64,000 nt of DNA, taken from the sequence record OR896157.1; one strand, 5' to 3'. The translations under genes were made by a program, and so were the position numbers. The notes beneath the pieces were generated by a model, which did not search any database, was not told where the DNA came from, and saw only the letters and a program-made list of their open reading frames with translations. The stretch comes from a phage. Shown piece by piece: positions 16,406-20,151 of this stretch. Numbering within the stretch: the stretch's first letter is position 1; each line of letters starts with the position of its first letter.

Positions 16406-16902
16406 CAGATACTTACCACAGTAATAGCTTCAGGAGCTTTAGGAATAACGATATCTTCTTCAATGTAGAAGAGCTTAAATGTTTCAGCTACACGCATAAA
16501 GTCAATATCATAACCGACTGGAGTTCCAATCAATTCTTGAATCTTATCCATCACTTTATACTGAACTTGATAGAAATCTTCAAGACGAGCATCGAATTCA
16601 TCTTCAGTATAATCACCTTCTGGGATTACAAAGCCAAGCACTTCTGAACAGAACTCTGGAGTGATTTCTTCATTTTCAACACAGTATTCAAAGAAAGCAT
16701 CACCGGAATAATCTTCATTACCCATTCCATTAGGGTCTGAATTATCAGATGCAAAACATTTAGCAACGGCACACCAACCTGAAACGTGTCTAGCATTTAC
16801 AGCATAAATCACATTCTCTTGATAATCATCGCCATCGTTTTCCCATGATACACATGATACTGCATAACCTTTAGGGATAGTTTGACCAAAGCGGAGTTCC
16901 AT
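16405..16902 (-). CDS. hypothetical strongly acidic protein
   Basis: 165 aa, about 23 percent Asp+Glu. Confidence 0.45.
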   Translation of the reverse strand: MELRFGQTIPKGYAVSCVSWENDGDDYQENVIYAVNARHVSGWCAVAKCFASDNSDPNGMGNEDYSGDAFFEYCVENEEITPEFCSEVLGFVIPEGDYTEDEFDARLEDFYQVQYKVMDKIQELIGTPVGYDIDFMRVAETFKLFYIEEDIVIPKAPEAITVVSI

Positions 16903-16912
16903 AATATTTCCT

Positions 16913-17287
16913 TCAATTAAATGGTGGAAGAGATTTCTTATATAAATCTATCATCATTCGCCATTTAGCAATTACTTTAGAATACGGAGATTTATGAGAG
17001 AATTGCGAAATGTCAGAATAATCAAGTTCAGGCAGTGGAGTTAAATGACCCATCAGCTCACGAGGAAATTGATGAAAACAATTCATCAAATCTTTGTAAA
17101 CATAATCAAGTAAGTCTTTAACATCAAAGAATTGGGTATTTAGTCCTTCTTTGGAATAACGATATTTCAAAAATTTCCAATGACCGGACTTAGAATCTTG
17201 AGTAAACGCGTAATCACTATGAAGCATGATATCGCGAACAAAATCTTCAGAAAAGAAGATGGAGTGAGTGCAACCATAATAAATCAT
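16913..17287 (-). CDS. hypothetical protein
   Basis: ORF 16913..17335 trimmed to MIYYGC because its 5' extension overlaps a tRNA. Confidence 0.4.
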   Translation of the reverse strand: MIYYGCTHSIFFSEDFVRDIMLHSDYAFTQDSKSGHWKFLKYRYSKEGLNTQFFDVKDLLDYVYKDLMNCFHQFPRELMGHLTPLPELDYSDISQFSHKSPYSKVIAKWRMMIDLYKKSLPPFN

Positions 17288-17305
17288 AATATTTTCCTCA
17301 GAATT

Positions 17306-17382
17306 TGGTGACCCCAGCAGGACTCGAACCTGCAACCTAGCGATTATGAGTCGCGTGCTCTAACCAATTGAGCTATAGGGCC
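17306..17382 (-). tRNA. tRNA-Ile2-like (CAU)
   Basis: anticodon loop cuCAUaa; body very similar to E. coli tRNA-Ile(LAU) as recalled. Confidence 0.55.
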
Positions 17383-17409
17383 AAAGTCCTCCTAAGAGGA
17401 CCGAGGGTA

Positions 17410-17634
17410 TTATTCAACCATGAAATCTGCTACTTCATCAAAGTCGTTATTGATGACAACAGTAAATGGCAGAGCTTCATCACTTGTTTTGATAGTCAGC
17501 TTAACAAAACCATCAACAGTTTCAACCAAACCAACGATTTTATCTGAACGCACTACAGCACGAGCTACGTCAACAATTTTACCAGTCATTGCAAATGTAG
17601 CGATTTGGTTAACTTCAACAACGATACGTTTCAT
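17410..17634 (-). CDS. hypothetical protein
   Basis: 74-aa ORF. Confidence 0.4.
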   Translation of the reverse strand: MKRIVVEVNQIATFAMTGKIVDVARAVVRSDKIVGLVETVDGFVKLTIKTSDEALPFTVVINNDFDEVADFMVE

Positions 17635-17695
17635 TCTTTTTCCTTAGTGGTTTTGATAAGGTAATTATATACTGAATTTTTAAAGCGTTTTCACT

Positions 17696-17730
17696 AAAAA
17701 GCCCCGTAACAGATTTCTCTGCTCGGGGCG
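17696..17730 (-). terminator. terminator-like hairpin plus U-run after tRNA sub-cluster
   Basis: gccccg...cggggc stem followed by uuuuu on minus strand. Confidence 0.4.
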
Positions 17731-17735
17731 TCATT

Positions 17736-17810
17736 TGGTGGGAAGTGTTGGAATCGAACCAACCTCTCATGCTCTTCAGGCACGCGCTAATCCATCTCAG
17801 CTAACTTCCC
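17736..17810 (-). tRNA. tRNA-Phe(GAA)
   Basis: anticodon stem cgugc/gcaug, loop cuGAAga. Confidence 0.6.
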
Positions 17811-17813
17811 GAT

Positions 17814-17890
17814 TGGTCGGTGCGGCAGGATTTGAACCTGCGACCCCTTGGTCCCAAACCAAGTGCTCTACCAAACTGAGCTACACACCG
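17814..17890 (-). tRNA. tRNA-Pro(UGG)
   Basis: anticodon stem cuugg/ccaag, loop uuUGGga. Confidence 0.65.
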
Positions 17891-17896
17891 TTAATT

Positions 17897-17971
17897 TGGA
17901 GCATCCAGAGAGAATCGAACTCTCATCTACTGGGTGGAAGCCAGTCATAATAGCCGCTATACGATGGATGC
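17897..17971 (-). tRNA. tRNA-Gly(UCC)
   Basis: anticodon loop cuUCCac. Confidence 0.6.
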
Positions 17972-17976
17972 AATTT

Positions 17977-18070
17977 GTACGGAACGCCTGGATTCGAACC
18001 AGGTTAAATTGCGATTGACGTCACAATTTATCTTATGAAGGCCATGCCTCTACCATATCCGAACGTTCCG
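17977..18070 (-). tRNA. tRNA-like element, anticodon unresolved (possible pseudo-tRNA)
   Basis: good acceptor cggaacg/cguuccg and T-arm ccugg-UUCGAAU-ccagg, but no clean anticodon stem; contains uuCAUaa and an 8-bp extra hairpin. Confidence 0.35.
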
Positions 18071-18121
18071 TCAAAAACGCTACTCGGCTTACGGCTTAGG
18101 CAATTCCTCGAACCGATAATT

Positions 18122-18195
18122 TGGCAGGCCCCGTAGGAATCGAACCCACGTCACTGAGGTTGGAGCTCAGGATAATACCACTATACGAGAGACCT
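18122..18195 (-). tRNA. tRNA-Trp(CCA)
   Basis: anticodon stem cugag/cucag, loop cuCCAac. Confidence 0.6.
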
Positions 18196-18199
18196 AAAA

Positions 18200-18293
18200 T
18201 GGAGGAAGCGGTGGGATTCGAACCCACGGACCGTATCACTACGGCCTCCGCATTTCAAGTGCGGTGCAATTAACCAGACTCTGCCACGCTTCC
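18200..18293 (-). tRNA. tRNA-Ser(UGA), class II
   Basis: 94 nt, anticodon stem ccgca/ugcgg, loop cuUGAaa, long variable arm. Confidence 0.65.
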
Positions 18294-18297
18294 GAAT

Positions 18298-18373
18298 TGG
18301 GGTGACCGATGGGAGTTGAACCCATGACTACGAGAATCACAATCTCGAGTTCTACCAACTGAACTACGGCCAC
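18298..18373 (-). tRNA. tRNA-His(GUG)
   Basis: anticodon stem cgaga/ucucg, loop uuGUGau. Confidence 0.6.
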
Positions 18374-18587
18374 ATCAATATTCACTCCAGCAATCATGAT
18401 GCCTTCACACGAAATTGAGAGAAGAGTGATCAGTTCAACCCTTGTAGACGCGTCAAGTAAATATTGATGTGACAGCTTATTTAAGAAGAGTGAGAGTCCC
18501 AGTCTTGTACGGAGTAACCATTTATGCATTGGCAGCTATCGCGCGGTTCGCACTTCCGATAAATGGACTTACCGTTACACTCTAATT

Positions 18588-18662
18588 TGGCTGGACTATC
18601 TGGATTCGAACCAGAGATACCGGAGTCAAAGGCCGGTGACTTAACCGCTTGTCTATAGTCCA
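18588..18662 (-). tRNA. tRNA-Gln(UUG)
   Basis: anticodon loop cuUUGac, one C-U mismatch at base of anticodon stem. Confidence 0.55.
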
Positions 18663-18668
18663 ATTGTT

Positions 18669-18743
18669 TGGAGGCGGGTGATGGACTCGAACCATCGCGT
18701 AACGGGATATGAACCCGTCATTCTACCAACTGAAGTTAACCCG
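18669..18743 (-). tRNA. initiator-like tRNA-Met(CAU)
   Basis: loop uuCAUau, GGG/CCC at bottom of anticodon stem, unpaired 1:72. Confidence 0.5.
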
Positions 18744-18898
18744 CATCTATCCGGATTCTTGAAGTACTAACAAGTAGCTTGATGTAGAACACGCTAAAGA
18801 TATAATCTTACGAATATAGAGCTTATTCCGTGGGAACAAACAGCTTCGTCCTCGGCATTATCTTACAGGACTCTGACTTATCTTCAAGAACTGCCTCG

Positions 18899-19363
18899 TT
18901 ATTTTATGAACTTATTTATGAATCGTCTAGCTTGAGTATGACTGACTCCAAGTTCATTTGCAAATTTTACTAATGCACCACGTTTTGTGAAATCAATAGA
19001 ATTATATAAATCTATTCTTAAAGCAATTTCATCTGCAGTGAATTTATGAGCATGATTTTCTGATATTTTTATTTTTGTTTCATCAGAATGATTATGTCCA
19101 GTAAAACCAGTAGATACGATTCTTCCATTTGCGCCAGCGTCTTTAGCATTTTGCGCATTAGTTGCGCAATAAATGTTATCCAAAGAATATGGTCCAACAT
19201 CTCCTTTACGACACATACAATAATTATCTGAGGCTCTACCGCGCAAATGATATTTGCCAGTAGCTTTCCACCATGATAGCCATTCATCAAATGTCAGTTT
19301 AAATTCAATACCTCTTGATTTAGCATGCACTTTTTGCATGCGATACTTTTCATAATCTTTCAT
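18899..19363 (-). CDS. homing endonuclease-like protein
   Basis: GHNHSDETKIKIS (NUMOD3-like) and C-terminal helix-turn-helix ELGVSHTQARRFINK; embedded in tRNA cluster. Confidence 0.5.
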   Translation of the reverse strand: MKDYEKYRMQKVHAKSRGIEFKLTFDEWLSWWKATGKYHLRGRASDNYCMCRKGDVGPYSLDNIYCATNAQNAKDAGANGRIVSTGFTGHNHSDETKIKISENHAHKFTADEIALRIDLYNSIDFTKRGALVKFANELGVSHTQARRFINKFIK

Positions 19364-19377
19364 ATTACTCTCATATT

Positions 19378-19454
19378 TGGCAGTGCTGACGGGTTTCGAA
19401 CCCGCGATCTCTCCCGTGACAGGGGAGTGTCTTGACCATCTCGACTACAGCACT
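19378..19454 (-). tRNA. tRNA-Asp(GUC)
   Basis: anticodon stem cuccc/gggag, loop cuGUCac. Confidence 0.6.
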
Positions 19455-19699
19455 ATAAATTTACTTTCGTGAGTATGGGATTACCCTCAAGCCTTCCGGA
19501 AAGCTGAATAGGCGTTATTGGCTCTCATATACCCGTGCACAGATATAATCTTCATTAACGCAATAACTTCATCAATATACTCCGAAAGTAAACTTTCGGC
19601 GCCGTATTTAATTTTGACTGTGTAGTTATCGTTGAGGGAACTCACAGACAGGGATTAAAGTGCCGACGACTTATCAGAACGTCTTCTGACTTCTACATT

Positions 19700-19784
19700 T
19701 GGCGGGCCGTGCAGGTATCGAACCTGCCTAGTCATTTCTGACACGGATTAACAGTCCGTCGCTTACCCTCTCAGCCAACGACCC
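19700..19784 (-). tRNA. tRNA with GUU anticodon (Asn) but class-II architecture
   Basis: anticodon arm acgga-cuGUUaa-uccgu, discriminator G, 3-bp D-stem, 15-nt variable arm guca-gaaa-ugac. Confidence 0.5.
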
Positions 19785-19789
19785 AAATT

Positions 19790-19864
19790 TGGTTCTCCGT
19801 AAGAGAATTGAACTCTTCTTTCCGACGTGAAAGGCCGGCGTCCTAACCGATAGACGAACGGAGA
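19790..19864 (-). tRNA. tRNA-Glu(UUC)
   Basis: anticodon loop cuUUCac. Confidence 0.55.
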
Positions 19865-19865
19865 T

Positions 19866-19943
19866 TGGTAGGACGTGAGGGAGTTGAACCCATCGACATT
19901 CCGATTAAAAGTCGGATGCTCTAACCAACTGAGCTAACGTCCT
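19866..19943 (-). tRNA. tRNA-Lys(UUU)
   Basis: anticodon stem uccga/ucgga, loop cuUUUaa. Confidence 0.6.
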
Positions 19944-19981
19944 GTAGATATTTATAATAACAAAAATATCTTTAAGCAAAT

Positions 19982-20057
19982 TGGTGGGAATAACTGGGCT
20001 CGAACCAGTGACCTAACGATTATCGGTCGTTTGCTCTACCAACTGAGCTATATTCCC
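19982..20057 (-). tRNA. tRNA-Ile(GAU)
   Basis: anticodon stem aacga/ucguu, loop ccGAUaa. Confidence 0.55.
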
Positions 20058-20063
20058 TGAATT

Positions 20064-20151
20064 TGGTGGGGAGTGATGGAGTCGAACCACCCGAGTCGCA
20101 ATGACAACAGATTTACAGTCTGCACCGCTACCTCTACGGAATTAACTCCCC
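20064..20151 (-). tRNA. tRNA-Tyr(GUA), class II
   Basis: 88 nt, loop cuGUAaa, discriminator A, long variable arm. Confidence 0.6.

Follow-up and report, generated by a model that had tools for sequence, protein, structure and literature searches.

Does a T4-like phage carry its own start-tRNA? The question is raised by one CAU tRNA gene in a stretch of 64,000 nucleotides of phage DNA (record OR896157.1, one strand, 5' to 3'), referred to here as the window. A preliminary description, made from the sequence alone, took this gene for an initiator-type tRNA-Met on the strength of three consecutive G-C pairs in the anticodon stem and an unpaired 1:72 position, and supposed that a second, Ile2-like CAU tRNA of the same phage serves a different function.

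A CAU tRNA gene in a T4-like phage

The DNA that harbors the gene belongs to a T4-like phage of the genus Karamvirus and is related to Enterobacter phages. Its tRNA region is 92-96% identical to that of several Enterobacter phages, with a query coverage of 98% for KMB20 and about 85% for PG7, fGh-Ecl01 and others, and the 141 bases around the CAU tRNA share 100% identity with Enterobacter phage fGh-Ecl01. ARAGORN, which calls tRNA-Met(cat), Rfam, the fGh-Ecl01 annotation and the predicted fold all support one gene:

18669-18745, minus strand: complete tRNA gene with a CAU anticodon, 77 nt including the encoded CCA

The coordinates given earlier (18669-18743) had the 3' end right and fell 2 nt short at the 5' end, which lies at 18745. 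Rfam RF00005 matches the gene at 44.1 bits (E 4.6e-07); every other ARAGORN-called tRNA of its cluster scores higher with Rfam. The identical copy in fGh-Ecl01 is annotated as tRNA-Met over the equivalent of 18672-18745.

The gene is already known as tRNA-Met from more than 200 GenBank records, and BLAST finds it in 232 phage records, in the genera Karamvirus, Jiaodavirus, Kanagawavirus, Winklervirus, Moonvirus, Marfavirus and others. These records give the label tRNA-Met and are uninformative on isotype; two of them, with locus tags that suggest an automated pipeline, put the Met label on both CAU tRNAs. A BLAST search of 5,426 E. coli genomes with the tRNA returns zero matches, so a close host counterpart cannot be used to name it.

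The surrounding cluster has several features of its own:

14804-20151, minus strand: tRNA cluster, with 19 ARAGORN calls and one tRNA found by Rfam only
20067-20151, minus strand: the tRNA found by Rfam (39.1 bits) and missed by ARAGORN, corresponding to the tRNA-Tyr annotated in fGh-Ecl01
14972-15056, minus strand: tRNA-Cys(GCA), 85 nt
19700-19784, minus strand: tRNA-Asn(GUU), 85 nt
18899-19363, minus strand: open reading frame of 154 aa between tRNA-Asp and the CAU tRNA

As a whole, the cluster provides 20 tRNAs for 18 amino acids plus Ile2, nearly all with an encoded CCA, and lacks tRNAs for Ala, Val and elongator Met. The tRNA-Cys and tRNA-Asn have a D stem of 3 bp and a long variable arm that is base-paired, a combination that in bacteria is normally restricted to Leu, Ser and Tyr tRNAs. 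In the window, 632 nt separate tRNA-Asp from the CAU tRNA, against about 160 nt in fGh-Ecl01. The reading frame in this interval matches phrog_16521 (E 8e-58, unknown function), with weak matches to HNH and homing-endonuclease PHROGs and no match in a Pfam search, and is probably a mobile endonuclease-like insertion within the tRNA cluster. A promoter and terminator scan returned sites no more numerous than chance.

Anatomy of the tRNA

The structural features are listed below, with homologue counts that refer to 11 distinct sequences obtained from 13 fetched loci and a pattern scan of IMG/VR.

18745, minus strand: position 1 (U), unpaired against C72; U opposite C in nine homologues and A opposite C in two
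18739-18744, minus strand: 5' strand of the acceptor stem, positions 2-7 (GCGGGU), pairing with 18674-18679
18720-18736, minus strand: irregular D arm with A10-U25, one extra C (bulged or mismatched), U-A, U-A and C-G, and the loop AGUUGGUA
18714-18716, minus strand: G29, G30 and G31, the 5' side of the three G:C pairs
18709-18711, minus strand: anticodon CAU (ARAGORN, sequence)
18707, minus strand: U38, invariant in the BLAST-derived homologues; A38 in bacterial initiators
18704-18706, minus strand: C39, C40 and C41, the 3' side of the three G:C pairs
18680-18696, minus strand: standard T arm (GAUGG / UUCGAGU / CCAUC), in which two pairs covary
18674-18679, minus strand: 3' strand of the acceptor stem, positions 66-71 (ACCCGC), placed by ARAGORN and the homologue alignment
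18673, minus strand: position 72 (C), invariant among the homologues
18669-18672, minus strand: discriminator U73 and encoded CCA; U73-CCA in nine of the 11 homologues

The three structural statements of the preliminary description can be read directly from these positions. The anticodon is C18711-A18710-U18709, the anticodon stem holds G29-C41, G30-C40 and G31-C39, and U18745 stands opposite C18673 without a base pair. Above the three G:C pairs lie A27-U43 and C28-G42, and the loop is UUCAUAU. The acceptor stem pairs G2:C71, C3:G70, G4:C69, G5:C68, G6:C67 and U7:A66, of which the first five (GCGGG/CCCGC) equal the bacterial initiator consensus. In the minimum-free-energy fold, the acceptor, anticodon and T arms form and positions 1 and 72 stay unpaired.

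The assignment of 1:72 depends on the acceptor register. The generic Rfam register lies one base off, with a G at position 1, a C as discriminator and a deletion, and was rejected: it displaces the CCA by one base. The cluster's 17 other well-formed tRNAs all carry N73-CCA at the standard place and a paired 1:72, and the ARAGORN register is preferred because it fits both this CCA placement and the pairing of the homologues. Within the cluster, the unpaired 1:72 is found only in this tRNA among the 18 that ARAGORN models, a count that excludes one false call discussed below.

Conservation in T4-like phages

In the ARAGORN register, 94.8% of the paired cells of the 11 homologues hold a base pair and eight pairs show compensatory changes, those at 5:68, 6:67 and 7:66 of the acceptor stem included; slid partners pair in 43-51% of cells. 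Position 1:72 is unpaired in every homologue. The 2:71 pair is GC in all 11, and 3:70 is CG in ten and UG in one. In Kanagawavirus the 10:25 pair is C-G in place of A-U, a change that speaks for the bulged D stem.

Pairs 29:41, 30:40 and 31:39 are G:C in 10/11, 11/11 and 11/11 homologues. Directly above them, 27:43 and 28:42 drift with compensation (UA in six and AU in five; CG in five, UG in four and AU in two). Three nearly constant G:C pairs beside drifting neighbours point to selection on the sequence itself, beyond pairing alone.

The set also has its exceptions. Erwinia phage Gravdalen carries A29 opposite C41 and has lost one G:C pair, which counts against an initiator. Moon lacks an encoded CCA, and the tail of phage 15882-3-1 reads UCUU in place of UCCA. 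Together with the irregular D stem and the low Rfam score, these exceptions are what could be expected of a gene without translational use, either decaying or serving as a decoy for a host tRNA-targeting nuclease or some other factor. Such a fate is very improbable for a tRNA that is retained across so many phage records and several genera, that keeps its covarying pairs, and that has preserved U8, A14, G18, G19 and the T loop.

Specificity of the hallmarks among cellular CAU tRNAs

Calibration relied on a GTDB scan with the pattern CTCATAA-N13-GGTTCRANTCC, which listed 120 taxonomically broad loci in which ARAGORN finds 123 CAU tRNAs. With archaeal and mis-registered calls excluded, the distinct sequences fall into three classes:

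Initiator (n = 61): 1:72 is CA in 38, CT in 12, TT in 6, AA in 1, TA in 2, TG in 1 and CG in 1; three G:C pairs at 29-31 in 48 and two in 13; A73 in 61/61; A11 in 61/61
Elongator Met (n = 15): 1:72 is G.U in 11 and G:C in 4; at most two G:C pairs at 29-31; A73 in 15; C11 in 15
Ile2-like (n = 24): 1:72 is G:C in 22 and G.U in 2; at most two G:C pairs at 29-31; A73 in 24; C11 in 23 and T11 in 1

Three G:C pairs occur in 48 of the 61 initiators and a true 1:72 mismatch in 57, and neither is found in any of the 39 elongator Met and Ile2 sequences. Both hallmarks are therefore specific to initiators within this sample. All 15 sampled elongator Met tRNAs have a paired or wobble 1:72 and one or two G:C pairs at 29-31; the phage tRNA has neither trait, its U1 facing C72 unpaired and its G:C pairs numbering three.

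Other positions of the phage tRNA depart from the initiator class. Its D stem is missing A11:U24, whereas A11 is universal in the sampled initiators, and its discriminator is U73 and not the equally universal A73. Its anticodon loop reads UUCAUAU against the initiator CUCAUAA. Since A38 is fixed by the scan pattern in the 61-initiator sample, position 38 was assessed in an independent metagenome scan, in which A38 occurs in 123 of 124 matches to TCGGGCUCAUANCCCGA and U38 in none. The absence of R11:Y24 and the changes from A73 to U73 and from A38 to U38 all count against an initiator.

A side-by-side comparison with bacterial tRNAfMet (E. coli metZWV/metY) gives the same mixed picture. Shared features are the CAU anticodon, a non-Watson-Crick 1:72, G2:C71 through G6:C67, the three G:C pairs, G26, and a length of 77 nt with CCA. 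The phage tRNA differs in having U1 opposite C72 where tRNAfMet has C1 opposite A72 (U1 occurs in nine of the 61 sampled bacterial initiators), in lacking A11:U24 and carrying an extra D-stem nucleotide, in replacing the invariant A73, and in its variable loop, UACGC against AGGUC. With elongator tRNA-Met and Ile2 it shares the CAU anticodon, a Y11:R24-type D stem and the T loop UUCGAGU. Elongators have a 1:72 paired as G:C or G.U and at most two G:C pairs at 29-31, and Ile2 has C4:G69 and C5:G68; none of these occurs in the phage tRNA. By sequence, it is not a canonical member of the tRNAfMet family.

Isotype scores and the companion CAU tRNAs

Home-made covariance models were built from the GTDB sample for iMet (R1, 60 bacterial initiators), Met (R2, 15 sequences) and Ile2 (R3, 24 sequences), and applied to the phage tRNA and to a second CAU tRNA of the cluster as a control:

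18672-18745: iMet 49.3, Met 51.8, Ile2 41.0 bits
17309-17382 (control): iMet 54.1, Met 73.0, Ile2 85.1 bits

The control is separated correctly, which indicates that the models work on it. These surrogate models do not call the phage tRNA an initiator: they give a tie that leans toward elongator Met, with iMet minus Met at -2.5 bits and between -9.4 and +0.3 bits across the homologues. Unlike tRNAfMet, it is no nearer to the iMet than to the Met model. For the six other cluster tRNAs that exceed 60 bits on the Met model, the difference is -6 to -19 bits. Profile HMMs score the phage tRNA at 20.3 (iMet), 25.7 (Met) and 17.9 (Ile2) bits. By per-position log-odds, the phage tRNA and most homologues fall between the initiator and elongator classes; this naive measure is biased, because the near-invariant initiator profile penalises novelty, and serves only for placement between classes. 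The likeness to initiators, as far as sequence comparison goes, is confined to the determinants and does not extend to the body of the tRNA.

The separation of CAU tRNAs supposed in the preliminary description is upheld by the control locus and its surroundings:

17306-17382, minus strand: companion CAU tRNA of the Ile2 (lysidine) type
17965-18125, minus strand: stretch about 80% identical to a region annotated as rnaC in T4-type phages

The first assignment draws on the model scores, on C4:G69 and C5:G68, and on the tRNA-Ile annotated in the near-identical fGh-Ecl01. The 18669-18745 tRNA is not of the TilS substrate type, as it has G4:C69 and G5:C68 and a low score on the Ile2 model. A third 'tRNA-Met' called by ARAGORN at 17977-18071 (95 nt), within the rnaC-like stretch, was rejected as a tRNA for its poor cloverleaf, its lack of an Rfam tRNA match and its likeness to rnaC, the T4 'species 1' stable RNA. 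The rnaC-like stretch occurs in 745 phage records and is mis-annotated as a third tRNA-Met in PG7 and SonariX. With this call identified as an rnaC homologue, the phage is left without an elongator Met tRNA.

The scores bring up the idea that the gene is an elongator tRNA-Met that fills the Met slot of the cluster, its initiator-like features being tolerated or incidental. The Met model does score slightly above iMet, the D arm and T loop resemble those of elongators, and the cluster holds no other Met tRNA and otherwise provides one tRNA per amino acid. The same near-complete set, in which the only Met tRNA could merely fill a slot, counts against an initiator, as do the model tie and the plain tRNA-Met label in GenBank. 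We nevertheless regard an ordinary elongator as unlikely. An unpaired 1:72 or three G:C pairs appear in none of the 39 cellular elongator CAU tRNAs and in few phage ones, both features are held in 10-11 of the 11 homologues despite the drift of neighbouring pairs, and E. coli initiator variants elongate only with a Watson-Crick 1:72 (PMC6265465). The refutation named in the preliminary description, an elongator Met score together with a paired 1:72, does not apply here, since 1:72 is unpaired.

Initiator-like tRNAs in other phages

Phage initiator-like tRNAs are common in IMG/VR. Scans of its viral contigs find at least 195 distinct CAU tRNAs with three G:C pairs, of which 133 have a 1:72 mismatch, against at most five of 34 co-resident CAU tRNAs without the three pairs (Fisher p = 5e-9). 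The hallmarks thus co-occur in viral contigs and define a class among phage CAU tRNAs as well. In two large phages (L275 and L280), an initiator-like CAU tRNA is joined by a second, elongator-like Met tRNA. The former combines U1 opposite U72 with U73 and U38, and the latter has the loop UUCAUAC; the two genes are neighbours in L280, with no Ile2-like call in the stretches fetched. A further phage (L308) has an initiator-like CAU tRNA and an Ile2-like tRNA.

The closest parallels come from two Aeromonas T4-like phages (L293 and L296), in which a CAU tRNA directly follows tRNA-Asp, the same position as in the window. In this tRNA, a regular D stem with A11:U24 accompanies three G:C pairs, U38 and U73-CCA, and its score is higher on the iMet than on the Met model (65.0 against 57.5 bits in L293 and 63.6 against 56.2 in L296, a surplus of 7.4-7.5 bits). 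Because the Aeromonas equivalent at the same place scores as iMet, the tRNA of the Karamvirus group may be a diverged copy of an initiator-type tRNA, as the comparison suggests. More widely, other phage initiator-like CAU tRNAs share the three G:C pairs and a 1:72 that is weak or mismatched. U38 is frequent among them and U73-CCA occasional; U73 occurs in 27 of the 195. Many of them keep the GAGCAG...GCUC D arm with A11:U24, and A73, and favour iMet by 7 to 19 bits, whereas the homologues of the 18669-18745 tRNA have lost both A11:U24 and A73.

Phage tRNA-fMet genes are already on record, in Erwinia jumbo phages (PMC7760394). A survey states that phages generally avoid encoding tRNA-fMet (PMC10264068); contrary to this statement, the IMG/VR counts suggest that initiator-like tRNAs are encoded by many phages, frequently with a change at the VapC cleavage site described below.

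Position 38 and VapC toxins

Enteric VapC toxins inactivate host tRNAfMet by cleavage between A38 and C39, as stated in PMC4105405 with reference to the original work. The pattern TCGGGCTCATANCCCGA in 120 metagenome loci returns A38 123 times, C38 once and U38 not at all. U38 is enriched in viral contigs: of their 120 matches to TCGGGCUCAUANCCCGA, 12-18 have it, compared with none in the 120 metagenome loci (Fisher p about 4e-4), in a census that covers viral IMG/VR loci L274-L383 and others and metagenome loci L384-L503. Among phage CAU tRNAs with three G:C pairs, U38 is present in at least 93 distinct sequences. Support for a link to VapC is so far statistical only. U38 in this tRNA and in many unrelated phage initiator-like tRNAs might be an anti-defence change that lets the phage's own initiator survive VapC-type attack, a tentative proposal that we consider rather doubtful.

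A candidate dedicated initiator

The initiator-type assignment stands in so far as both hallmarks are present, conserved and specific; it falters on the missing A11:U24, A73 and A38 and on the tie of the home-made surrogate models. The reading that we favour, with modest confidence, is that 18669-18745 encodes a phage Met tRNA that would work mainly as a dedicated translation initiator, charged and formylated by the host.

Published work on the determinants bears on this reading. Recognition by the formyltransferase (Fmt) depends mainly on the 1:72 mismatch together with 2:71 and 3:70, and P-site binding is promoted by the three G:C pairs (PMC6265465). The CAU anticodon is sufficient for MetRS (PMC9976931). 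A11:U24 helps formylation, and R11:Y24 is listed as a formyltransferase recognition element (PMC7949028; PMC9976931). In the engineering work of Varshney, Lee and RajBhandary, as far as it is covered in PMC7949028, the mismatch and three G:C pairs transplanted into elongator tRNAMet or tRNAGln permit initiation in E. coli. Like the phage tRNA, these constructs carry the 1:72 mismatch and three G:C pairs on an elongator-type body. They were made in the laboratory and have A73 and a regular D stem, whereas the phage tRNA is a natural gene of putative activity.

The steps that we infer from these parallels begin with transcription together with about 19 other tRNAs of the minus-strand cluster, after which host RNase P and 3' nucleases would excise the tRNA with its CCA already encoded. 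Host MetRS would charge it with methionine through the CAU anticodon. Host formyltransferase would then formylate it, because 1:72 is unpaired and followed by G2:C71 and C3:G70, and the mismatch would also keep EF-Tu and peptidyl-tRNA hydrolase off the tRNA. IF2 would set it in the 30S P site, where the three G:C pairs would pass the IF3/16S check. The likely benefit to the phage would be initiation sustained when infection depletes the host tRNAs or exposes them to attack.

An alternative is a Met tRNA of dual function, comparable to the single tRNA-Met of mitochondria. With its Fmt determinants weakened by U73 and the lack of A11:U24, a share would stay unformylated and pass to EF-Tu and elongation. 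The tRNA is the sole Met tRNA of the phage, its anatomy is a hybrid of initiator determinants on an elongator-like body, and E. coli is viable on a single engineered dual-function tRNA with weakened Fmt determinants (PMC6265465). The engineered versions all required a paired 1:72 (G72 or U1), however, whereas the position is unpaired in all 11 phage homologues, which should disfavour EF-Tu; elongator tRNA-Met is, moreover, still supplied by the host unless degraded. Such a double role seems improbable to us beside that of a dedicated initiator.

Implications for T4-like phages

At a practical level, GenBank labels the gene only as tRNA-Met, and in some records the rnaC homologue nearby is wrongly given as a third tRNA-Met. 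If the tRNA is an initiator, T4-like phages of Enterobacter, Klebsiella, Citrobacter, Serratia and Erwinia import their own start-tRNA. A phage start-tRNA, if true, would lie outside the usual explanations for phage tRNAs, most of all codon-usage matching, which fails for a start-tRNA because AUG use is independent of GC content. The virus-enriched U38 offers a testable link to VapC-type toxins aimed at initiator tRNA. The gene would also be a natural minimal initiator, with two determinants on an elongator-like body and neither A11:U24 nor A73, and as such it would inform what the host formyltransferase and IF3 truly require.
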